From a virus (taxonomy: Duplodnaviria; Caudoviricetes): 64,000 nt of DNA. Below are positions 3,726-54,380 of this stretch, one piece after another. Within the stretch, counting starts at the first letter, position 1; every line of letters begins with the position of its first letter. The notes under the pieces were generated by a model, which did no database searches, was not told the DNA's origin, and was given only the letters and a program-made list of their open reading frames with translations. The translations under genes and the position numbers were made by a program. The stretch covers positions 2,100-66,099 of the IMG/VR virus record IMGVR_UViG_3300048854_000065; one strand, written 5' to 3'.

Positions 3726-3902
3726 TTAGGAACCAACCCGGCGTTCTTCATTTTTGGGAAGCATGGTCATAATCTTCCATGCGGTTTTCGAATCAAGGCT
3801 CATCCAGTCGTAGTCCTTCAGTTCCATCCGAACAGCGCGCTGCGCTTTCTTCTGAATCAAACGAAGGCGATCAGCCTCCTCATATTTTGCTCGATCCTTC
3901 AT
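3726..3902 (-). CDS. Small hypothetical protein
   Basis: RBS AAGGA then MKDRAKYEEAD... Confidence 0.45.
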   Translation of the reverse strand: MKDRAKYEEADRLRLIQKKAQRAVRMELKDYDWMSLDSKTAWKIMTMLPKNEERRVGS

Positions 3903-4026
3903 CGGTCGAGTCCTTTCTTTCCGGGTTGATTTGACGATAAATCGACTTGGGAGAAGGAAAGAAAGAGGCCGCAACGCTTTACAGTGTCGGCGGCCTTCTG
4001 CAGTGGGAGGAAATACAGGCACGGAA

Positions 4027-4149
4027 TTATGTAGTTTGTTTGTTACCGGCGTGTCGGACGGCGATGTGGAAACTAAGCCATCGCCAACGATTCCAAGGTC
4101 GGATATGCCATGGCGGTCGGTCATCACAATGAGGACAGACGCAAGGCAC
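4027..4149 (-). CDS. Putative C2H2-type zinc-finger microprotein (40 aa)
   Basis: GTG start; CPHC-x19-HIAVRH; weak RBS. Confidence 0.4.
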   Translation of the reverse strand: MPCVCPHCDDRPPWHIRPWNRWRWLSFHIAVRHAGNKQTT

Positions 4150-4168
4150 GCCAATATGGTTTCCGTAC

Positions 4169-4828
4169 TTACGAGGAGCGGCGAATAAGGGCAGTGAGTT
4201 CTGAGGCAAATTGCCTCGAAGGTAGGTCATACTCTCGCGCCATACTCGCTGAAAATTCGAGGAATCTGCCATAGGCAACGGCGAGGGTGGCTTCGGGTAT
4301 TCGCGGCGGGTTACGGTGGTCGTAATACTCTTGGGCTGCTTTGTCGCTGGTGATGTGGACTTCGATTTCGCGAGTGTGAGATTTTTCTTTGCGGCTGGCA
4401 GCGTTCGTTTTTCGTGATTTATAGGGACCACGTTTCTTGCCGAGCTTTGAGGCATCTTGCGCATTCTCCTTTGTGGTGGCGAGGTGTGTTGCTTGCTGAG
4501 GCTCATGCTCTGCGATTGGTTCCGGAGCCGGTAAAGTGGGTAGGCCTTCTGCCTCTCTTCTTTTGCGAAGGCGATATTCGCGTTTGTAGTCACGCTCTTC
4601 GCGTCGGAGAGCAGCAGCGTCTTTGGCGGCCTTTGTAGTTGGCTCATCCTTTTGGGTCCGTGCAATCACGGCTCCTTTGGACTCGCCTTTAATGCCGTGA
4701 GCCGAGCGGCGATGCGAGGAAAGCCCTCTCGGGTTCTGGTAAGGTCCGGCCTTGCATTCAGGACAATAGAATTTCCCATCTGGAGCAGGCTTGAATGGAA
4801 CATAAGCTCCAGCTTTCTTTGTGGACAC
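4169..4828 (-). CDS. C2H2-type zinc-finger protein with basic/charged central region
   Basis: RBS GAGGAG + GTG at 4828; FYCPECKAGPYQNPRGLSSHRRSAH (CX2CX13HX4H). Confidence 0.7.
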   Translation of the reverse strand: MSTKKAGAYVPFKPAPDGKFYCPECKAGPYQNPRGLSSHRRSAHGIKGESKGAVIARTQKDEPTTKAAKDAAALRREERDYKREYRLRKRREAEGLPTLPAPEPIAEHEPQQATHLATTKENAQDASKLGKKRGPYKSRKTNAASRKEKSHTREIEVHITSDKAAQEYYDHRNPPRIPEATLAVAYGRFLEFSASMAREYDLPSRQFASELTALIRRSS

Positions 4829-4887
4829 TTTAGTAACTCCTCTGTCTGGCGGTAACTGTAGCATTAAAAGCGCAAGTGTAGCGCAAG

Positions 4888-5559
4888 TTACGTGGAGGTA
4901 ACCTGTCGCTTGAGTATCTTTGCGACTACGGGACCCGTCCAAGGTTTACCGGATCGGGTAGGGACTGCGCGCGTGTTGAACGTGTCTGCGATCTGTTTGT
5001 AGGTCAGACCAGACTCTTTGTGAGTGAGAGCTGTAGCTAACGCAATAGCCTCAGCAGGATGAGAGGGATGGAAGCCGAACGCTTTGCGTCCTTCACACTT
5101 GCCGTGACGCGCACGTTTACGCTCGCGTGCGCCTCGTAGTTTCAGAACTGTCATTGCGCGGTCGTACTCCGCGATGGCTCCAAAGATTTGGCGCATCAGC
5201 TTCCGGCTAGGGTCGTCAGAGCACAGATCGGGCTCTGCTGTGGAGATCAGCAGATAACCACTCTTGCGTAGATCGGCAATGATGGTTTCCTGCACCATGA
5301 GATCGCGCGCTAGGCGGTCAAGGCGCTCGATCACGATGGTTCTGCAGTCGGAGGCCTCAAGAGCTGCCAGAAGGCGCTGTAAGGCCGGTCTGGACTCCAG
5401 CTCGTTGGCACCACAAACACCCTCTTCGCGGAAGATTTCGGTGATGACCAGATTGTGGGCTGCAGCATACGCTTGGCAGGCGGCTAATTGTCGGTCGAAG
5501 CCATCACCGTCTACCTGTCCAAGGCCAGAAACCCGGAGGTAAGCGAAACAGGGTTTCAC
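4888..5559 (-). CDS. Serine recombinase (resolvase catalytic domain + short recombinase DNA-binding domain)
   Basis: FAYLRVS catalytic Ser motif, RPALQRLL, IERLDRLARD, C-terminal KQIADTFN...TRSGKPW. Confidence 0.92.
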   Translation of the reverse strand: MKPCFAYLRVSGLGQVDGDGFDRQLAACQAYAAAHNLVITEIFREEGVCGANELESRPALQRLLAALEASDCRTIVIERLDRLARDLMVQETIIADLRKSGYLLISTAEPDLCSDDPSRKLMRQIFGAIAEYDRAMTVLKLRGARERKRARHGKCEGRKAFGFHPSHPAEAIALATALTHKESGLTYKQIADTFNTRAVPTRSGKPWTGPVVAKILKRQVTST

Positions 5560-5735
5560 TGTACCTCCCGTTTGTGGGCCAGAAGGATTTGGCGAGCGTG
5601 TTCCAAGTGGACGATGGCCTTGGCGGCTATGTCTACGGAGTGATCGTCGCGAGGATTCTCGCGAGCTTCGGATGCTAGATGGTTTTGGGTGGCGTCCAGT
5701 TCATCGATTCGGTTGTTGATGAAGGCGAGTTTCAT
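5556..5735 (-). CDS. Small hypothetical protein
   Basis: MKLAFINNRIDELD..., stop overlaps recombinase start. Confidence 0.5.
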   Translation of the reverse strand: MKLAFINNRIDELDATQNHLASEARENPRDDHSVDIAAKAIVHLEHARQILLAHKREVQ

Positions 5736-5745
5736 CGTGGGTCCT

Positions 5746-5958
5746 TTAGTCGATTTGTCTTATTTTTTTGGGTTTGGGTAGCAACGCATGGGAGGTGTCG
5801 CGTGGACCACGTGGGCGTCCAATCTTCTTAGGCCCGTTCCACTTCCTAGACTTGCAGCTAGGGCACATGGCCGGGAGCAGTTGGGTGATGGATATCCACA
5901 TGTGGGCACACGCGTCACAATTGCACTGGTGTGCAACAACTTTCACATTCTTGACCAC
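5746..5958 (-). CDS. Zinc-ribbon protein with AT-hook
   Basis: CDAC.H.W...LPAMCPSCKSRKW followed by KKIGRPRG. Confidence 0.7.
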   Translation of the reverse strand: MVKNVKVVAHQCNCDACAHMWISITQLLPAMCPSCKSRKWNGPKKIGRPRGPRDTSHALLPKPKKIRQID

Positions 5959-5984
5959 TTAACAGGTCCTCCTTACACGGACCG

Positions 5985-6263
5985 TTATACGCCTTTGAGC
6001 AGATCGGACAAGGTAATTCCGAACCCAAGGGATAGAACTTCGAGCATTTGTAGACTTGCAGTTTTGCTACCAGCTTCGAGGCAGGAGTAGTGACCGCGAT
6101 CAATGCCCCACTGTTCGGCAACGTCTTGCTGAGTGAGCTTAGCCTTCAGGCGCAGCGACTTCAGACGCATGCCGAAACGTACTTCCACCTCATCCACAGA
6201 CGCAGCCTTGGCAGGCGCGCCTATGGATTTGCGGAGTGTTTTGATTGTCTTGTTCATCTTCAC
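5985..6263 (-). CDS. XRE-family HTH transcriptional regulator
   Basis: FGMRLKSLRLKAKLTQQDVAEQWGIDRGHYSCLEAG...SLQML. Confidence 0.88.
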   Translation of the reverse strand: MKMNKTIKTLRKSIGAPAKAASVDEVEVRFGMRLKSLRLKAKLTQQDVAEQWGIDRGHYSCLEAGSKTASLQMLEVLSLGFGITLSDLLKGV

Positions 6264-6388
6264 AGGAGTTGTCCTTTTGCCAGCGGTATAAGGGCGATGG
6301 AGAACCAGTCCACCATTCGATTGAAATGTAGCCCGTAGCCATCATCGTGAATCGCTTGCGCTAAAGTCAACGAAAAAGGCGTTTATTG

Positions 6389-6565
6389 TTACGACTTTCT
6401 TTTATTAGGGGCCTGTTTGTCTCCATTGTCTACGATTTGGCGGAGGCTGGAGATCACGAAGTCACGGAGGGTCATATCGTTGTGCAATGCCGCCGTTTTG
6501 AGTGACTTCAGAAGGTCAGAGGGGAATTCTTTGAGGCTGAGAACGGATTGGCGGGTCTCGTCCAT
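6389..6565 (-). CDS. Ribbon-helix-helix DNA-binding protein (58 aa, below ORF-track cutoff)
   Basis: MDETRQSVLSLKRIPSDLLKSLKTAALHNDMTLRDFVISSLRQIV: beta strand + two helices pattern. Confidence 0.65.
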   Translation of the reverse strand: MDETRQSVLSLKEFPSDLLKSLKTAALHNDMTLRDFVISSLRQIVDNGDKQAPNKRKS

Positions 6566-6593
6566 GGGGTTCTAGGGTCTCCTATCAGTTGTT

Positions 6594-6658
6594 GGGCTGC
6601 TTATCAGGGCCGTTTATCAAGGCCCTTTATCAGGGCTGCTTATCAAGGCTGTTTATCA
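6594..6658. repeat. Five tandem 13-bp direct repeats (consensus RGGCYVYTTATCA)
   Basis: gggctgcttatca gggccgtttatca aggccctttatca gggctgcttatca aggctgtttatca. Confidence 0.85.
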
Positions 6659-6755
6659 GAGGGTGATGAGGGTAGAGGGTAGGTGGTGCCCCCTGTATCA
6701 GCTCCGCAAGGTCCTCCTCTGCGATGCGGAGCTGGCGACGTAAGAATGTCGCAAA

Positions 6756-7007
6756 CTACAGCTTGGCGAGCGATCCTTTCCGCGTAACTTGGGTAGCTGT
6801 CGTTAGACATAGTTCTCCTTGTGTTTGATGAATAGCCATAGGCGATTGCGCAAGTGCAACATTGCACTCCATAGACGCCATGGGGATGGATTGGAGCGGG
6901 TTTGTAGACTGATGGTGTTGCCGTGCTTGCCAGTCCTCAATCAGGACCGGCACCACGACAACGGCCAGCAACGCGAGTAACCAAAGAAGAAAATGTAAGA
7001 CTTTCAT
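6756..7007 (-). CDS. Small protein with N-terminal hydrophobic segment
   Basis: RBS AAAGGAA; MKVLHFLLWLLALLAVVVVPVLI; C-terminal extent doubtful. Confidence 0.4.
   Translation of the reverse strand: MKVLHFLLWLLALLAVVVVPVLIEDWQARQHHQSTNPLQSIPMASMECNVALAQSPMAIHQTQGELCLTTATQVTRKGSLAKL
6847..6868. repeat. 22-bp sequence repeated exactly (inverted) at 52015-52036
   Basis: TGCGCAAGTGCAACATTGCACT; contains palindrome GTGCAA-CA-TTGCAC. Confidence 0.8.
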
Positions 7008-7045
7008 CGGCGAGATGAGTTCCTTTGTTCGTTCAGGATTGAATT

Positions 7046-7222
7046 CTAAAACGCAATGGGTTTCCAGTTCTCCGGGCTGACGGGTGAGTAAACCCGATGA
7101 TGGCGAGGTGCGTAGGTAATCACCTCTGTAAATCGCAGGCCGTACCAGCGGTAGGAAAAGTCACCCTGCGCGCGTTCTGCGAACGATAGAAGAGCTTGCA
7201 TGTTGGTGAATGACTCCATCAT
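7046..7222 (-). CDS. Small hypothetical protein
   Basis: ATGA coupling to upstream gene; MMESFTNMQALLSF... read by hand. Confidence 0.5.
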   Translation of the reverse strand: MMESFTNMQALLSFAERAQGDFSYRWYGLRFTEVITYAPRHHRVYSPVSPENWKPIAF

Positions 7223-7407
7223 TGGGCTGACCGATTGAGCCGGTTAGCGCGTCTGCGAGCTGCACTGATGGCGTCATAACGCTTGATACGACCATTACGG
7301 TCTCTGATGGCCACTGGAGGCCCTGACAGGGTTCCATAGGCCTGTAAGGTGGCTTCTGTGTCCAGAATCCACGCCTGACCTTTGAACGTGTGCACGGTAT
7401 AGCGCAT
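7219..7407 (-). CDS. Small hypothetical protein
   Basis: RBS AAAGGAG; ORF track. Confidence 0.6.
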   Translation of the reverse strand: MRYTVHTFKGQAWILDTEATLQAYGTLSGPPVAIRDRNGRIKRYDAISAARRRANRLNRSAQ

Positions 7408-7494
7408 AGTTCTCCTTTAGTGCCCGGTGGTATCGGGCTGTCATTTTTCCCGCGCGAGATCCCGCGCGCGATTTTTGTAAGTTGTTCTGACGGT

Positions 7495-7548
7495 GGTCTC
7501 ATCAGTGCGTGAATGACACGCATACAGGCCCGTAGGCCTGTTTCGACC
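7495..7548 (-). ncRNA. Type II hammerhead ribozyme HH1
   Basis: Minus strand GGTC-GAAA-CAGGCC(TACG)GGCCTG-TA|TGCGTG(TCATT)CACGCA-CTGATGA-GACC; predicted cut after GUA between 7523 and 7522. Confidence 0.93.
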
Positions 7549-7550
7549 TG

Positions 7551-7895
7551 TTAGACATCCATTGCGAATAGTTCATGAACGGCATCAAAACGCGGATTGT
7601 TCTGATGGATGACTTCATGCTGGAACTTCATATCGCCGCGCATGATGGTGATGAAGCCATAGAGGGTCAATTCAGCGATGTAGGTACGGCCATCAGAGCC
7701 GTCAACGATGCGCGCTTTGGTCTCATAGGTAAGCTTTTTGGGCGCTCCATCAGTAGTGCGCACAGCGCGCTCGCCGCGTTTGGTCTGTTCTATCTCGAAG
7801 ATGGCAGTGACGCGTTTGGAACCGCTAGGCCAGTCCTGAATCACTGCGCGCATGCGAGGGTTGCTGTAGGTGAGGGTTACGGTTGCTTCGTTCAT
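7551..7895 (-). CDS. Hypothetical protein
   Basis: RBS AAAGGAG; ORF track; stop lies 2 nt before HH1. Confidence 0.65.
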   Translation of the reverse strand: MNEATVTLTYSNPRMRAVIQDWPSGSKRVTAIFEIEQTKRGERAVRTTDGAPKKLTYETKARIVDGSDGRTYIAELTLYGFITIMRGDMKFQHEVIHQNNPRFDAVHELFAMDV

Positions 7896-7958
7896 GGGGT
7901 ATTGCTCCTTTAGTCGGCACTGGTAGCGCGTTTGGGGTTGTGTATCAGGGTTGGGTGA

Positions 7959-8546
7959 TTACATTGCGTACAGCAGGCCGTCATCACCCGCGTAAATCTC
8001 GCACTCGCCGAAGGCCTTAGAGGTGGCATCCATGCGTTCACCCTCCCCCTTTGGCCAGTCGCCATCCCAAAAGCCAGCGCCATGGCCATTACGGGTAAGC
8101 CAAAAGTCATGGCCAGCGCTCGCATAGGCTGAATCGATGTCTTGGCCGTGTGCAGCTTCGAAGATGGCGCAATCGTGGATAAGTTGGCGCGCCAGATCGA
8201 ACGAGACATCATCCACGTCTTTGCCCTGCATGGACTCTTCAGAGTTAGGGGTCACTTCAGTAAAGAAAAGAGCTTCGACATACGCGGCCAGAAAGTCATT
8301 CTTGCGCATTGCATCGCGCAACATCTTTGCCCCATTGAATGATTCGGGATCATTCACAACTTCCCATGAGCCGATAGGGTTTTGTACCGCGTAATCGAAC
8401 ACAGGCCCGGTATCGCCGACTGTGGGAGTTGAGCTGGCGCAATAGCCAGATGAGCCAACGTTGACGATGGCAGTTTTCAGGCCATCACGTACGGTCTGGA
8501 AGTCGTCAGATTTACCGGGAAGTGGGATGGTTAGTTTGAATTGCAT
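7959..8546 (-). CDS. Conserved phage hypothetical protein
   Basis: AGHDFWLTRNGHGAGFWD motif that I recognise from phage hypothetical proteins. Confidence 0.65.
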   Translation of the reverse strand: MQFKLTIPLPGKSDDFQTVRDGLKTAIVNVGSSGYCASSTPTVGDTGPVFDYAVQNPIGSWEVVNDPESFNGAKMLRDAMRKNDFLAAYVEALFFTEVTPNSEESMQGKDVDDVSFDLARQLIHDCAIFEAAHGQDIDSAYASAGHDFWLTRNGHGAGFWDGDWPKGEGERMDATSKAFGECEIYAGDDGLLYAM

Positions 8547-8912
8547 TTAGTTTGCCTCCTTCTGCATGCAGTCATTGCAGAGCATTGTGCAGTCATCTAC
8601 GATTCCGCCTGCAGGTTGCCAAACCATAGAATCGGGTGAGGTGCGGAAAGCTTTGTTGCAGTTTTCGCAGTTAGACCATTCATCGGACCATTCAATGGAA
8701 TAGCCATAAGACTCCAGAATCGAATCGATGCTGCTAGCAAAATAGTTCCAGTTGGCGAACAAGATGCACTTTGCCGGGTTGGTATATCCGGGCTCTGCAT
8801 ATCCTGTTGCGAAGTTCATGTTTTCAATTTCGGATATGCGCGATTGGATGGAGTAGTTGCCGCAGTGAGGTTCGCGGCAAAGTGAAGCTTTCAAAATGTA
8901 CTGTGGGGTCAT
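8547..8912 (-). CDS. Hypothetical protein with Cys pairs
   Basis: RBS AAAGGAG; CENCNK...LCNDC. Confidence 0.6.
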   Translation of the reverse strand: MTPQYILKASLCREPHCGNYSIQSRISEIENMNFATGYAEPGYTNPAKCILFANWNYFASSIDSILESYGYSIEWSDEWSNCENCNKAFRTSPDSMVWQPAGGIVDDCTMLCNDCMQKEAN

Positions 8913-8950
8913 GTTCGGGTAAATCTCCTTTAGTTGAATCTTCTGACGTT

Positions 8951-9004
8951 GGTCTCATCAGCATGCGCGTAACGCATGGACGGCCTATACAGGCCGTTTC
9001 GACC
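8951..9004 (-). ncRNA. Type II hammerhead ribozyme HH2
   Basis: Minus strand GGTC-GAAA-CGGCCT(GTAT)AGGCCG-TC|CATGCG(TTACG)CGCATG-CTGATGA-GACC; predicted cut after GUC between 8979 and 8978. Confidence 0.94.
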
Positions 9005-9005
9005 T

Positions 9006-9197
9006 TTAGAGGTGCTTGGACATCATCATGAGCCTACGGAAGCGTAGGACGGGCACCAAAAGCTGGAAAATGGCCTCTGTGGATATGCCGATAACGAGTG
9101 CAAAGATAATGATGCTTCGAAAGTCGAAGCCAACATGAAAGCCATAGACGAAGCCTGCGAGTAGAAGAACGATACGAAGAATAGAGCGGATGTGCAT
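9006..9197 (-). CDS. Small two-TM membrane protein
   Basis: Two hydrophobic segments; RBS AAAGGAG; stop 1 nt before HH2. Confidence 0.6.
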   Translation of the reverse strand: MHIRSILRIVLLLAGFVYGFHVGFDFRSIIIFALVIGISTEAIFQLLVPVLRFRRLMMMSKHL

Positions 9198-9241
9198 TTT
9201 GAATCTCCTTTTGTGCCTTTGGTGAGGCTTAGGGTTGAGAA

Positions 9242-9478
9242 TTAGTTTGTGCCGTTGGCGACACGGATAAGACGCTCGCCTAATGCGATGGCTTCATCTT
9301 TGGACATAGCAGCGTGAATGCATACGTTGGTCACTTTGAAGTCACCAAAAGAGAGAGTCACGACGGGTGACCAGTTAGGGCCAACGTTGGACGCGCCTAC
9401 GCTGGTCTCAACATCGATGGATGGTATGCGGGTCCTACGCTTGGTATTCAGGTCCCGGAATCGCGATTGCATTTTCAT
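9242..9478 (-). CDS. Hypothetical protein
   Basis: RBS AAAGGAG directly after HH3; MKMQSRF... Confidence 0.6.
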   Translation of the reverse strand: MKMQSRFRDLNTKRRTRIPSIDVETSVGASNVGPNWSPVVTLSFGDFKVTNVCIHAAMSKDEAIALGERLIRVANGTN

Positions 9479-9497
9479 GGCGAGTGAATCTCCTTTT

Positions 9498-9550
9498 GGT
9501 CTCTTCAGTGACCGCATCACGGTCAGACGGGCAAGATGCCCGTTTCGACC
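9498..9550 (-). ncRNA. Type II hammerhead ribozyme HH3
   Basis: Minus strand GGTC-GAAA-CGGGCA(TCT)TGCCCG-TC|TGACCG(TGATG)CGGTCA-CTGAAGA-GACC; predicted cut after GUC between 9526 and 9525. Confidence 0.94.
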
Positions 9551-10350
9551 TATGCTGCTATGGCATCTAGCAACGTGGATGCCGTTTTAGAGATGACTTC
9601 GATCGATGCGGCAAAGGAATCCGCATCACCGTTATAGAGCTTGATGTAGTCAGCGCTTGATGTGTTCATGTCCAGACCGATGGCAGAACCTACGATGAAG
9701 GCAACGGCTTCGGCTTCGAGTTCGCGCGATTCCTTCGTTGTGCCTGTGCGCTTGTCGCCTTTGTGCATCAACTCATGCGCTACTTCGTGAGTCAGGGTTG
9801 AGAACAATTCAGCACCGTTTGTGCACGATGCAAGCTTGATGGTCCCACCGTAACTCATGCCTTTAGCCGGAAGGATGTCATCAGCATCAAAGGCAACCGT
9901 GATGCTGTTATCTGCGCACAGGGTCAAAAGCTTTTGATAGGAATCAGCAGCGTCACCCGATGCTGTGGCGAATTCTGGTAATTCCTCGCCATCGGTCTGC
10001 GAGATATCGAACACACACACAGACCGGAACCCGAACACGAAAGATTTATCCTCTGAGGTGGCTTCGTCCTTCTTTTTGCCTACCATTGGGGCAAGGATGC
10101 GAATCGCCTTTGATCCCTTCTTTACAAAGCGATTGTGATCCTTCCATGCGTTGAATCCTGCCACTCTGGAGGCATCGGGCATCTGAGACCAGATGAGTAT
10201 CTGATTGCCCCATGAGTAGCGATAGAAGGTGCCCATCGCTTTGAGGTATGCGGTTAGGGCTTCGGACTGGCCAGCTTTTAGCAGCTCGGTCAGTTTGGTG
10301 ATTGCTTCGCTGATTGCTTCTTTGCCATTGGTTTTGATTGCTTCGGACAT
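9550..10350 (-). CDS. ardC: ArdC-family antirestriction protein (ssDNA-binding domain + zincin-like HExxH domain)
   Basis: YSWGNQILI...VAGFNAWK...RFVKKGSKAIRILAP; VFDISQTDG; THEVAHELMH...ELEAEAVAF. Confidence 0.88.
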   Translation of the reverse strand: MSEAIKTNGKEAISEAITKLTELLKAGQSEALTAYLKAMGTFYRYSWGNQILIWSQMPDASRVAGFNAWKDHNRFVKKGSKAIRILAPMVGKKKDEATSEDKSFVFGFRSVCVFDISQTDGEELPEFATASGDAADSYQKLLTLCADNSITVAFDADDILPAKGMSYGGTIKLASCTNGAELFSTLTHEVAHELMHKGDKRTGTTKESRELEAEAVAFIVGSAIGLDMNTSSADYIKLYNGDADSFAASIEVISKTASTLLDAIAA

Positions 10351-10414
10351 TTGTGTATCTCCTTTAGTGCCTCTGGTAAGGCTGACCGGATAACGCTCCG
10401 GTCTGGCGTTTGGG

Positions 10415-10831
10415 TTATTTGCAGAGTGATTCGGGCAGGCCAGCTTCGCGCAATGCAGCAAGCTGGAAAGACGTAACAAACGAGTCCAAGCGATTGGAGA
10501 GGGTTTTATCGGGTGAGAGTAGGTAAACGTGTCCATCTGCGTTTACTTCCAGCCACCCGTCAGAAGAGGTGTGGATTCTATGCATATTTTTGACGCCACC
10601 GTCTAAAGCCCTCTGATAGGCCTTAGTGACATCTCCATCGGTTGTGAAGGTTACGTATTCACGGCCTGCGTTTATTGCAGCATCGGCCTGCGAAGTGGTT
10701 AGGCCGTTCTCGAATCCGATGGTGTTTGCTCCATTGCCTGATACGTGGTCCCGGTACGCTGCAATGCAGGTAAGGAGTCCGTATTTCTTGGTTGCTCTAG
10801 CCGACTTGGGGCTGAGTGTGACGTTGGTCAT
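10415..10831 (-). CDS. Hypothetical protein, first gene of the leftward early cluster
   Basis: RBS AAGGA; MTNVTLSPK... Confidence 0.6.
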   Translation of the reverse strand: MTNVTLSPKSARATKKYGLLTCIAAYRDHVSGNGANTIGFENGLTTSQADAAINAGREYVTFTTDGDVTKAYQRALDGGVKNMHRIHTSSDGWLEVNADGHVYLLSPDKTLSNRLDSFVTSFQLAALREAGLPESLCK

Positions 10832-10857
10832 GGCGAGTGTCCTTTCCTTCTTAAATG

Positions 10858-10888
10858 ATTGTACAGCATTTCCAGTGGATGCAGTCAA
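10858..10888 (-). promoter_or_regulatory. Candidate sigma70-type promoter for the leftward cluster
   Basis: TTGACT-19 bp-TACAAT in an AT-rich divergent intergenic region; spacer longer than optimal. Confidence 0.35.
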
Positions 10889-10953
10889 CACAGTATTTGA
10901 TATTATTCATACAGCCCGTTTACCCATGGGCACCAAAAGGAGAAACACTCGCC

Positions 10954-11217
10954 ATGACAGACCAGACCATTACAGCGATTGCAACGGCTTCAGTGCCTAC
11001 CGTAGCCGTCCTACTCGCCTATTTCCTCAATAACCGCAACCTGCAGGATTTACGTGCTGATGTTCGGGTTGATATGCAGGGTATCCGCGCTGAACTACTC
11101 CAGTTCAGAACCGAAGTGAATGCCAAGTTTGCATTGATCCATGCGGATGTATCGACGCTGGTCAAAGTGACCCATGAATTAGATAAGCGCATCACTCGTC
11201 TAGAGGATGCGTCATAG
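10954..11217 (+). CDS. Small protein: N-terminal TM + coiled coil
   Basis: RBS AAGGAG; VPTVAVLLAYFL then heptad repeats ending ELDKRITRLE. Confidence 0.65.
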   Translation: MTDQTITAIATASVPTVAVLLAYFLNNRNLQDLRADVRVDMQGIRAELLQFRTEVNAKFALIHADVSTLVKVTHELDKRITRLEDAS

Positions 11218-11295
11218 ACATTCACCGTGCCGAATCCTTTAGCGGTAAGTGAATCGTGCGGGGTGGTACTCGCGGCCGGTACGTAACCCGGCAAA

Positions 11296-11332
11296 CTGAC
11301 GGCCATGAGTCCTAACCGATTCATGGCCGTCA
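11296..11332. repeat. Perfect 13-bp inverted repeat (hairpin)
   Basis: CTGACGGCCATGA-N11-TCATGGCCGTCAG. Confidence 0.7.
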
Positions 11333-11838
11333 GGCCGTTGAGCACCTCAAACGCGAGTCCGCTATCCCCTTCTCATGCCTCTATACAAAGAACTAGAACA
11401 AGCTAGAACATGGCAAAGGATGGCTACGTGTAATCACCCATGGAACACACACAAAGGTGCATAGCGTATGCACATTTAGAGACGCCGAATTACTGACCGG
11501 CGATCCCTTGCCAACTCTCTCAAACAGTTTTTTGTACGCTTATCAACGCATGCGCAGGTGATGCCCAAACGCACGGTCAGCCATGGCGCATTGTCTAGTA
11601 GTTTGCTCGGTTGTCCAGACGCATAAATGCCCGTAAACATTGGTGTTTGGGCATCCACAGACAAATTCTACGGAATGGGATGCACGGCACCCAAACGCAT
11701 GCTTTGAGGTGAGGGTTCAACGCTCGCAATGGACTAGATAGGCCATGGCTATGGCTAATTTATTTGTCGGCACCCCCACCCCCACCCATGGCATTGACGC
11801 CAAACAGAACCCGCTTTTTCAGAACCAAAAAATAAAAA

Positions 11839-21714: not shown

Positions 21715-21845
21715 GCGAAGCTGCTGGAGTAAACCACAAACCGAAGTCGCCGGTTCGAATCCGGTCCCTGCCCCCAAAAAATTCATGGCAGGGTAACTCA
21801 GTGGTAGAGTGTCGGCGGTAAGGCTCAATAACTCTAGGTCAGCCT
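21715..21845 (+). ncRNA. Circularly permuted tRNA-like RNA (YrlA Y-RNA-like)
   Basis: T arm GCCGG-TTCGAAT-CCGGT, then acceptor-like hairpin CCCTGCC...GGCAGGG, then D arm ACTC-AGTGGTA-GAGT, closed by a long stem (CCGA/TCGG, CTGGAGT/ACTCTAG, GCTG/CAGC). Confidence 0.75.
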
Positions 21846-21869: not shown

Positions 21870-21943
21870 TCTTCGATAGCTCACTTGGTAGAGCATCTGA
21901 ACTTTGGATCAGAAGGTTGCCGGTTCGACTCCGGCTCGAAAAA
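21870..21943 (+). tRNA. Degenerate tRNA or tRNA-like gene (Gln-TTG-like, 8-nt anticodon loop, no encoded CCA)
   Basis: D arm GCTC-ACTTGGTA-GAGC, stem TCTGA/TCAGA with loop ACTTTGGA, T arm GCCGG-TTCGACT-CCGGC, acceptor TCTTCGA/TCGAAAA with a mismatch. Confidence 0.6.
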
Positions 21944-53183: not shown

Positions 53184-54380
53184 TTAGACTTGAGAGGCCG
53201 GTGAGGAATCGGTGAATCGGTGGGACTTTCGGTGGGACTGCTCGAAAGAGTGGGAAGCTGGTGGGAGTAGCTGCCCGATAGACTCAACCGCATCGCGATG
53301 TTGCTCCGTGGTGAAATGGGAGTACCGGCGAGCCATCAGCAAATACTGTGACGGGCTCCAGCCTGCGATCTCGCCGATCTGCTGGAGGGAGGTTCCAGCC
53401 ATCAGCATCCGGGTGATGCCGGTATGGCGTAGGTCATGGACCCGGCAACGAACCTTAGCCCTAGTCTGCGCTCCCTGCCATGCTGTCTTGATACTTCCGA
53501 TGTGGGTGGACGGGTCCGTGTCGTAGGCGATGCTCTGGTCTGTCGTCTTGCCGGGTTTGAAGAGGTGGCCGCTCCCACCATACCGCTCCGAAGGGAAGAC
53601 ATAATCATCGGGCTTGCGGTCGGGGAACTGTTCAGCCCACATCTGCAGAGTAAGGAACGCCTTCCCCGCGAGCGGGATGATGCGGTGATCTCCCGAGACG
53701 GTTTTGTCTTTGCCCCATTGCAGGCAGCGGGAGGCAAAGTTGACGTTCTTCCACTTCAGCCGAACGATGACTCCAAACCGGGCGATGGTGTATAGGGCAA
53801 CGATTGCGATCACGATCACAGATCGCGAACGGGACTTGGAGCACTCAGCCAGAAGCCGGGTCTCCTCGTCGGCAGAGAGAGCACGACCATGGCTCTCACG
53901 TTGCTTGAGCATTTTCACTTTGGGGGATTTGGTGTTGCCCTGAACGCGAGCCCACTGACCACAGAAGATGAGGACAGCTCGAATGGTTCCTATCTCATTG
54001 TTGATGGTTTTGTTGGCGGCACCCTTCTCTTTTCGAATGCGCTGGTAGCTGGCGATGTCTTCGGCCGATAGTTCAGTGGAGAAGTTCATGCCAAGGACCG
54101 GGAGGATGTGATCGAGATCGGTGCGAGCTATTCGAGCTGTGTTCTCTGACCAGCTAACCTTCTTCATGTCGTGCCAGTCTTCAGCTACAACTTTGAAGAG
54201 CTTTGGACCTTCTGCTTTCTTGAAACCGCTGCGACCCGATTCCAGCTCTTCACGTCGATTGCGTTCGACTCGGTTGGCCAGAGACTTGGTTCTCTGGTGT
54301 GTGGATTCTTTGATTCGGACTCCCTGAAAAATGAAATCCATCACGAAAACTTGTTGCCCTTTAGGTTTGTAGGTGGACAT
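53184..54380 (-). CDS. int: Tyrosine integrase
   Basis: HDLRHT (HxxR), AGWS, RRYSH catalytic Tyr, N-terminal arm-binding domain; adjacent to att. Confidence 0.95.
   Translation of the reverse strand: MSTYKPKGQQVFVMDFIFQGVRIKESTHQRTKSLANRVERNRREELESGRSGFKKAEGPKLFKVVAEDWHDMKKVSWSENTARIARTDLDHILPVLGMNFSTELSAEDIASYQRIRKEKGAANKTINNEIGTIRAVLIFCGQWARVQGNTKSPKVKMLKQRESHGRALSADEETRLLAECSKSRSRSVIVIAIVALYTIARFGVIVRLKWKNVNFASRCLQWGKDKTVSGDHRIIPLAGKAFLTLQMWAEQFPDRKPDDYVFPSERYGGSGHLFKPGKTTDQSIAYDTDPSTHIGSIKTAWQGAQTRAKVRCRVHDLRHTGITRMLMAGTSLQQIGEIAGWSPSQYLLMARRYSHFTTEQHRDAVESIGQLLPPASHSFEQSHRKSHRFTDSSPASQV

Follow-up and report, generated by a model that had tools for sequence, protein, structure and literature searches.

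A leftward, multi-gene transcript of a temperate tailed phage, which includes an ArdC anti-restriction gene, is likely to contain active type II hammerhead ribozymes. The phage is uncultivated; its record encodes a large terminase, a major head protein and a tyrosine integrase, has direct terminal repeats, and was analysed here as a stretch of 64,000 nucleotides (the window). Judged by its sequence, the ArdC operon carries three genuine-looking hammerhead motifs between its genes, which probably divide a single long message into three or four pieces. The motif, the fold, the covariation across the family, the conservation in a syntenic relative and the placement of the elements were observed directly, and the cleavage of related prophage arrays in vitro and in vivo, known from the literature, provides a basis by analogy. 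From these we infer cleavage, a single transcript and an effect on stability or expression in the present phage.

The three elements, all on the minus strand, are HH1 (7495..7548; core CUGAUGA, triplet GUA at 7525-7523), HH2 (8951..9004; core CUGAUGA, triplet GUC at 8981-8979) and HH3 (9498..9550; core CUGAAGA, triplet GUC at 9528-9526), with predicted cleavage at 7523/7522, 8979/8978 and 9526/9525, respectively. Each has the strand order GGUC / GAA / stem III / H17 / stem I / CUGANGA / GACC. [quoted passage not shown] The invariant core (C3 U4 G5 A6 N7 G8 A9, G12 A13 A14 and A15.1-U16.1) was intact in all three elements, N7 being U, U and A and H17 being A, C and C (never G) in HH1, HH2 and HH3. 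The core-adjacent pairs were all Watson-Crick (10.1-11.1 G-C; 1.1-2.1 U-A, C-G and U-A; 15.1-16.1 A-U). Perreault et al. (2011, PLoS Comput Biol, PMC3088659) accepted hammerheads with three helices around the core and standard pairs directly adjoining it, and the sequences and minimum-energy folds of HH1, HH2 and HH3 conform to this rule. The minimum-energy fold was a three-way junction with stem II open (-25.0, -22.7 and -22.9 kcal/mol for HH1, HH2 and HH3; z-scores of -4.1, -3.2 and -3.6).

The pattern GGTCGAAAC-N25-50-CTGANGAGACC occurred at three sites in the window (100 shuffles averaged 0.00) and nowhere else in the 66-kb virus record. When run with filters off, a covariance model of the three elements detected only these in the window (74-78 bits; the next match scored 13.8 bits). 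Sequence, fold and shuffles thus bear out an earlier note on this DNA, which had placed three minus-strand type II hammerheads with a full core at these positions; the triplets and cleaved bonds that it named were exact on the minus-strand reading. HH1-HH3 lie within 2.06 kb and form a clustered array, all of them intergenic and on the coding strand, as the same note had claimed and as the ORF layout shows. Rfam scans of the operon gave no match to twister, pistol, hatchet or other ribozyme families.

The covariance-model search suggested in the earlier note succeeded with our own model but not with that of Rfam. Hammerhead_II (RF02276, clan CL00010) gave 26.1 bits for HH1 and 26.4 bits for HH2 (gathering score of 37), and HH3 was not reported. 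These sub-threshold matches surfaced solely in 2-8 kb scans; the gathering scan of the whole window reported a tRNA only, and the E-value scan of the 64 kb reported no hammerhead. In eleven array-bearing loci, Rfam at gathering found none, vs. 52 hammerheads found by our family model. As all of these 52 related hammerheads were also below gathering, the shortfall of HH1-HH3 reflects the RF02276 consensus. Core and strand order are alike, but the consensus has a 2-bp stem II, a long loop I and a pseudoknot tail, whereas the subclass of HH1-HH3 has a 4-bp stem II, a loop I of only 3-5 nt and no pseudoknot tail. The longest complementarity between loop I and the 3' tail in 284 members equalled that of shuffled tails, and at most 3-4 bp were possible by eye in HH1-HH3. 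According to Perreault et al. (PMC3088659), most type II hammerheads have this pseudoknot, which is not obligatory, and fast cleavage of the type II ribozyme that they mutated depended critically on it. As HH1-HH3 lack it, fast cleavage at low Mg2+ would need an alternative, putative tertiary contact; the missing pseudoknot and the sub-gathering Rfam scores count against the reading as active ribozymes. Rfam gathering missed every tested member of the subclass, so routine annotation will under-count phage hammerheads.

The model built from HH1-HH3 gave 114 matches in 80 viral contigs. Among 109 distinct sequences, 99.5% of the cells were paired, with 550 double-change cells and double changes in 14 of the 17 pairs, in an alignment that was fitted to the model but for which stems I and III had been left free in the search pattern. 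Pairing collapsed to 30-45% in the slid-partner control. The helices of this class are backed, then, by covariation among homologues, and outside the helices the loop I nucleotide U1 and the flanking A(-1) were conserved in the sampled phage hammerheads. Two to nine such hammerheads were present within the sampled stretch at 19 of 77 viral loci, and other sampled loci harboured arrays of 4-10. The earlier note had read the array as cutting a polycistronic mRNA, which is the standard published reading (PMC3088659; review PMC6765202), but its claim that a regular array in a phage operon is unusual does not hold, given these loci and the same arrangement in Perreault et al. 2011. The arrangement was published for prophages in 2011 and occurs commonly in phage contigs, so that the locus is a clean, fresh example of it and not a new type of system.

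The genes around the hammerheads are all on the minus strand. The ArdC-like anti-restriction gene (9550..10536, 328 aa; Pfam ArdcN 2.2e-10, PHROG 7245 anti-restriction 3e-17) comes last in the segment upstream of HH3. The segment from HH3 to HH2 (9006..9478) has two small ORFs without a family match, of 78 aa (9242-9478) and 63 aa (9006-9197), and its predicted RNA piece is 547 nt long (9525 to 8979). The segment from HH2 to HH1 (7551..8912; predicted RNA piece of 1456 nt, 8978 to 7523) contains ORFs of 121 aa (8547-8912), 195 aa (7959-8546, PHROG 1915) and 114 aa (7551-7895), the last with >700 homologues at about 70-80% identity and no assigned function. Downstream of HH1, an 87-nt leader that contains two GC-rich hairpins comes before the first ORF (62 aa, 7219..7407). 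The leftward operon may start at a weak sigma-70-like site in the divergent intergenic region (11590..11617, minus strand, 9/12 matches) and end at a terminator-like hairpin (3863..3879, minus strand), where leftward and rightward genes meet; both are no more than consensus matches. A promoter, a single transcript and 'early' timing of the leftward operon are accordingly no firmer than these weak matches allow. A repressor/Cro pair, sought beside the divergent region as an 'early' marker, gave no family matches there, and the only HTH_3 protein found is encoded far downstream (5985-6263).

In the mechanism that we propose, each hammerhead fills the gap from the stop codon of one gene to the ribosome-binding site of the next, and self-cleavage after H17 would leave the transcript in four parts: everything up to and including ArdC, the 547-nt piece with two small genes, the 1456-nt piece with three genes, and the remaining downstream genes. 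The upstream products would retain their stop codon, and their 3' end would be formed by the stem III hairpin (7 bp, GC-rich), a 1-nt overhang and a 2',3'-cyclic phosphate. The downstream products would start with a 5'-OH immediately at the stem I hairpin, and in those of HH1 and HH2 a second hairpin would come next, formed by a 3' tail paired with the now useless core. The outcome would be uncoupled mRNA pieces with structured and chemically unusual ends, the stability and translation of which could differ.

In a search for close relatives, blastn against deposited phages gave only matches of about 60 nt, inside the 195-aa gene; a single-protein scan of viral contigs gave none, and a scan of genome contigs gave two uninformative MAG contigs. 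The same arrangement, which the earlier note had suggested looking for in related phages, was present in one syntenic contig (L126, IMGVR_UViG_3300048854_000073; 73% identity in ArdC, 79% in the 195-aa gene and 71% in the 114-aa gene), with three hammerheads at positions matching HH1-HH3. The L126 orthologue of HH2 matches it fully in stem III and differs from it in stem I by two compensatory pair changes, the third L126 ribozyme combines an HH3-like stem III with a stem I identical to that of HH2, and one L126 copy has a U4C core change.

The hammerheads abut the upstream genes. HH3 and the ArdC stop codon TAG share one base, the G with which HH3 begins and the codon ends, HH2 starts 1 nt past the TAA of the 63-aa ORF, and HH1 starts 2 nt past the TAA of the 114-aa ORF. 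In the phage samples, 77 of 110 and 104 of 150 ribozymes (about 70% of 260 sampled) had the end of the stop codon at a distance of -1 to +4 nt, and the start codon lay most often 10-25 nt past the ribozyme. HH1 and HH2 are also followed on the minus strand by a 3' tail CGUCAG (7487..7492 and 8943..8948, respectively) that is complementary to the core CUGAUG (in HH2, 6 bp including one G-U). This pairing, which spans C3-G8, and stem II are mutually exclusive, and in nearest-neighbour calculations the tail-masked conformer, which is inactive, has an advantage of about 1.5 kcal/mol, a modelled preference that would count against active ribozymes. NUCAG occurred 0-3 nt past stem II in 51 of the 284 subclass phage hammerheads (2.4 expected), and its N paired with core position 7 in 49 of these 51 (Fisher p 2.6e-6); HH3 lacks such a tail, as does 82% of the subclass. 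Neither the stop-codon abutment nor the core-masking tail is mentioned in the text of Perreault et al. 2011 or was found in a literature search. We tentatively propose, as an idea with the balance somewhat against it, that the tail, paired with core positions 3-7/8 to the exclusion of stem II, is a post-cleavage lock that leaves a fully paired 5'-OH mRNA end of the downstream piece, or an off-switch; that the ribozyme builds on the stop codon upstream of it, has a nearly invariant A ahead of stem II and ends at the next ribosome-binding site; and that, with gene-content differences between related phages falling at the ribozymes, the hammerhead serves phage accessory-gene operons as a standard 'cassette joint'. 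If true, such a joint would couple translation termination, RNA cutting and gene exchange.

The masked conformer might alternatively mean that cleavage is gated and not constitutive, the ribozymes acting as switches, a reading that we hold to be unlikely but worth serious weight. The tail would mask the core, a ribosome terminating at the abutting stop codon would unwind the 5' strand of stem II, and the cut fraction would be set by translation of the upstream gene or by folding kinetics. The C3-G8 pairing and its stability, the excess of NUCAG with its match to position 7 and the frequent start of hammerheads <=4 nt from a stop codon all suit this reading. However, HH3 and most of the subclass lack the tail, the hairpin is equally explained by a fold that forms only after cleavage, when the GGUC strand has departed, and the adjacency to stop codons may be mere tight packing of phage genes. 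It is very improbable that the elements are dead relics, either functionless or intercistronic hairpins only. The Rfam scores, the absent pseudoknot and the U4C change in L126 are consistent with relics, and 4 of 18 consensus hammerheads were inactive in vitro in Perreault et al. (PMC3088659), but every core nucleotide is intact in HH1-HH3, the core of the family is near-perfectly conserved while the stems covary freely, and plain hairpins would not require the conserved A(-1) and loop I U1 outside the helices.

Gene exchange may be what maintains the elements, hammerhead and tail persisting mainly as conserved blocks where phages exchange small genes, or travelling with the genes, and any benefit of cleavage being secondary; we regard this as distinctly unlikely for the locus. 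All four differences in operon gene content between the window and L126 abut a hammerhead, the stems are mosaic between copies (as in the third L126 ribozyme), and identical ribozymes are found beside different upstream genes (for example L062 and L063). Neighbouring genes are not constant, in our Pfam scans as in PMC3088659: among 98 downstream and 73 upstream neighbours, mostly without a match, no constant partner gene appeared, and the Pfam matches were a few ArdA/ArdC, DUF7249 and AAA. Homologues of the 114-aa gene mostly lack a ribozyme as well. In a profile scan, 49 of the 51 viral loci with this gene had no nearby hammerhead of this model, so the ribozymes are dispensable for these genes, a point against the main reading, and only one of the 51 was syntenic with ribozymes. 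Against exchange as the main explanation, a single phage pair was compared, no mobility mechanism is known, and the catalytic core is intact and the stems covary over hundreds of copies, which points to the RNA fold, rather than a DNA site, as the target of selection. Cleavage could also be followed by ligation of the 547-nt and 1456-nt pieces, by RtcB-type ligases or by hammerhead reversal, into circular or spliced mRNAs. The 5'-OH and 2',3'-cyclic phosphate ends that follow from the hammerhead mechanism would permit this, and Perreault et al. raised the possibility, but they sought spliced or circular products of such arrays and found none (PMC3088659). Nothing in the sequence would bring a segment's two ends together, no RtcB gene was present among the scanned subset of window ORFs, and ligation is in our view exceedingly improbable.

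Cleavage of a phage message between genes has familiar counterparts. The T7 early mRNA is processed by RNase III, a host protein nuclease, and RiboJ, a synthetic ribozyme insulator, joins an engineered type III hammerhead to a hairpin. Both are functional analogies only, in which intercistronic cuts give a fixed, structured 5' end independent of the upstream context; in the present phage the RNA would cut itself, at sites that are natural. The closest likeness is to the clustered prophage hammerheads of Perreault et al., which flank genes, were proposed to process long phage transcripts and cleave within native transcripts of about 2 kb in vitro and in E. coli (PMC3088659). They include a triple array around ardA, an anti-restriction gene of Agrobacterium tumefaciens, for which cleavage was shown both in vitro and in E. 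coli (PMC3088659). As in those arrays, several coding-strand hammerheads within a few kb bracket single genes or short blocks of a phage or prophage, an anti-restriction gene is flanked (ArdC here, ArdA in A. tumefaciens), the flanked genes vary between phages, and the proposed role is to make gene-length mRNAs from a long transcript. The phage and the anti-restriction family are different, however, and the present copies, with a predicted activity, lack the loop I/3'-tail pseudoknot that Perreault et al. emphasised. In Desulfovibrio vulgaris, cyPhyRNA-seq showed in vivo cleavage of type II hammerheads (Olzog et al. 2021, PMC8782182), which is direct evidence of such elements cleaving in cells; there too the hammerheads adjoin phage-like genes, and two of them lie close together, but host and sequences differ.

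For the biological role of bacterial and phage hammerheads (reviewed in PMC6765202), the present locus is a tidy, testable case, with three intact-core ribozymes and a syntenic relative for comparison. The same operon offers two hammerhead copies with the core-masking tail beside one without it, together with an anti-restriction gene, the timing of whose expression matters to the phage.

The record is that of a tailed temperate phage with a large terminase, a major head protein, a tyrosine integrase (53184-54380) and direct terminal repeats. Its genes run leftward from approximately 11.3 kb to 3.7 kb, and this stretch holds three type II hammerheads on the minus strand, HH1 (7548-7495), HH2 (9004-8951) and HH3 (9550-9498), with predicted scissile bonds at 7523/7522, 8979/8978 and 9526/9525, respectively. 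Re-reading the sequence gave the same bonds as in the earlier note, and the full type II core claimed there was recovered: every invariant position is present on the minus strand, with standard base pairs at all three places adjoining the core. The core is CUGAUGA in HH1 and HH2 and CUGAAGA in HH3. Each hammerhead consists, in strand order, of GGUC, GAA, the stem III hairpin, H17, the stem I hairpin, the core and GACC. Stem III has 7 bp, with A-C at the opening, G-U at the close and loops of 3-4 nt; stem I has 6-7 bp and a loop of 3-5 nt; stem II (GGUC/GACC) has 4 bp. H17, between stems III and I, is a single unpaired A or C.

The minimum-energy fold of all three was exactly the hammerhead junction (z-scores -3.2 to -4.1). 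The joint hammerhead pattern occurred three times in the window vs. zero in 100 shuffles, and no further occurrence was present in the whole 66,099-bp virus record, whose bases 2100-66099 make up the window. A covariance model made from HH1-HH3, used to search the window with filters off, detected these three alone (74-78 bits; next match 13.8 bits). We consider it almost certain that HH1-HH3 are a real ribozyme motif and members of the family; they are also quite probably active in vivo.

A search pattern with stems I and III left free retrieved at least 120 viral contigs (first set), and a variant of it in which stem II reads GGAC/GUCC retrieved at least 120 further contigs (second set). Among the matches listed for the first set there were 114 model matches (109 distinct), and in their alignment, which was fitted to the covariance model, 99.5% of cells were paired, with 550 double-sided changes and compensatory change in 14 of the 17 pairs; sliding the partners as a control collapsed pairing to 30-45%. 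In the second set, the junction was the minimum-energy structure for 150 of the 156 pattern matches listed. The flanks were conserved as well (counts are among the matches listed): an A directly precedes stem II in 109/110 of the first set and 145/150 of the second, and a purine directly follows it in 98/110 of the first set. Loop I was 5 nt long in 102/110 of the first-set alignment and opened with U in 101 of those 102. Natural hammerheads make loop-loop contacts. A pseudoknot between loop I and the 3' tail, tested in the subclass by shuffling, gave no signal (observed equal to shuffled). We infer that the conserved loop I U and the flanking A may replace the pseudoknot contact, with 'loop II' staying open.

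At its gathering score Rfam 15 reported no hammerhead in the window, nor did an Rfam 15 E-value scan over the whole window. With the type II model, as proposed in the earlier note, short scans gave sub-threshold matches: RF02276 (Hammerhead_II) reported HH1 at 26.1 and HH2 at 26.4 bits, below its gathering score of 37 bits, and left HH3 unreported. These scores are low because the RF02276 consensus has a 2-bp stem II, whereas that of HH1-HH3 has 4 bp; a loop I approximately 10 nt longer than their 3-5 nt; and a conserved pseudoknot-forming 3' tail, which they do not have. In eleven viral loci (L029, L059, L026, L177, L182, L188, L228, L126, L061, L183 and L221) the family model found 52 hammerheads, and Rfam 15 at gathering reported 0 of the 52. 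The shortfall is a trait of the whole subclass, which lacks the pseudoknot and has a stem II of 4 bp, and to which routine Rfam annotation is blind.

Around the ribozymes, an ArdC-like gene (9550-10536, minus strand) lies directly upstream of HH3. Two ORFs (78 and 63 aa) separate HH3 from HH2, three (121, 195 and 114 aa) separate HH2 from HH1, and more small ORFs follow HH1; weak consensus matches suggest a putative promoter and terminator for the operon. The first G of HH3 is shared with the ArdC stop codon, while HH2 and HH1 begin 1 and 2 nt past a stop codon. A strong AAGGAG ribosome-binding site follows 4 nt after HH3, 23 nt after HH2 and 72 nt after HH1. This abutment on the stop codon is general in the sampled phage hammerheads: among the matches listed, 77/110 (first set) and 104/150 (second set) had an upstream stop codon whose end lay at -1 to +4 nt relative to the ribozyme, and the next start codon was commonest 10-25 nt past the ribozyme. 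The leader that separates HH1 from the following gene contains two GC-rich hairpins (7422-7470) resembling intrinsic terminators for the plus strand, which has no apparent gene here; the hairpins may prevent antisense transcription or be 5'-leader structure.

HH1 and HH2 carry, 2 nt past the ribozyme, a CGUCAG tail (7487-7492 and 8943-8948, minus strand) that could pair with CUGAUG of the core (positions 3-7/8). The tail-core hairpin and stem II are predicted to be mutually exclusive, and nearest-neighbour energies favour the masked fold over the active secondary structure by 1.4-1.6 kcal/mol. In the downstream cleavage product the tail-core hairpin is predicted directly after stem I, so that this 3' product would start with two adjoining hairpins that leave no 5' nucleotide unpaired. 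Among the matches listed, NUCAG lay 0-3 nt past stem II in 51 of 284 non-redundant subclass hammerheads (2.4 expected), and in 49 of the 51 its N can be matched to core position 7 as a base pair (45 Watson-Crick, 4 G-U; Fisher p 2.6e-6). This core-masking tail was not found in Perreault et al. 2011 (PMC3088659) or in the other literature searched.

The array had been called unusual, a description that does not stand: Perreault et al. 2011 (PMC3088659), who discovered natural type II hammerheads, described the same arrangement, in which several prophage hammerheads often bracket one gene or a short run of genes, and multi-copy loci also occur among those sampled here. Among the matches listed, 19 of 77 viral loci held 2-9 hammerheads per fetched stretch, and single loci held up to 10 within approximately 3 kb. 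The window array is a further example of these known clusters. Three prophage arrays cleave in vitro, and an A. tumefaciens triple array cleaves in E. coli (PMC3088659); the latter flanks ardA, whereas HH1-HH3 sit beside an ArdC-like gene. Olzog et al. 2021 (PMC8782182) also showed that three type II hammerheads located close to phage-like genes cleave in vivo. Processing of long phage transcripts to gene- or operon-length mRNAs was proposed in PMC3088659, and the mRNA-processing model appears reasonable for HH1-HH3 as an already published hypothesis; a 2019 review (PMC6765202) regarded the purpose of such hammerheads as still unsettled.

The 114-aa protein encoded immediately upstream of HH1 (7551-7895, minus strand) has more than 700 metagenome homologues at approximately 70-80% identity and no Pfam or PHROG family; such conservation is unusually high for a small phage protein without assigned function. 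Its profile retrieved 51 viral loci, and only one, the 65.8-kb contig L126, had the same operon (identities of 73% for ArdC, 79% for the 195-aa gene, 71% for the 114-aa gene and 55-82% for further downstream genes). The arrangement sought in related phages was found here, with three hammerheads at corresponding places. The HH2 orthologue (L126:2528-2582, plus strand) is identical to HH2 in stem III and its loop and differs by two compensatory pair changes in stem I; its core is CCGAUGA vs. CUGAUGA (U4C), with all stems still paired. U4C lowers activity in vitro and can be tolerated in vivo (PMC3088659); this copy may be slow to cleave or in decay. The L126 hammerhead after the 114-aa gene combines an HH3-like stem III with a stem I identical to that of HH2; therefore, hammerhead copies exchange parts. 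Between window 4000-11800 and L126, a single phage pair, 4/4 gene-content differences abut a hammerhead. These differences and the mosaic stems suggest recombination at or between ribozymes. Of the other loci with the 114-aa protein, one had a weak hammerhead match and 49 of the 51 had none, indicating that the ribozymes come and go.

Elsewhere in the window, a tRNA gene (21870-21943, plus strand; 53.8 bits) has directly upstream of it a sub-threshold YrlA (Y RNA-like) match (21724-21840, plus strand; 32.8 bits against a gathering score of 69). Within 4169-5559 (minus strand), a 223-aa serine recombinase ORF (Resolvase and the start of the Recombinase domain) is overlapped and succeeded by a 257-aa ORF in another frame; the pair may represent one large serine recombinase that a frameshift has divided, in addition to the tyrosine integrase.
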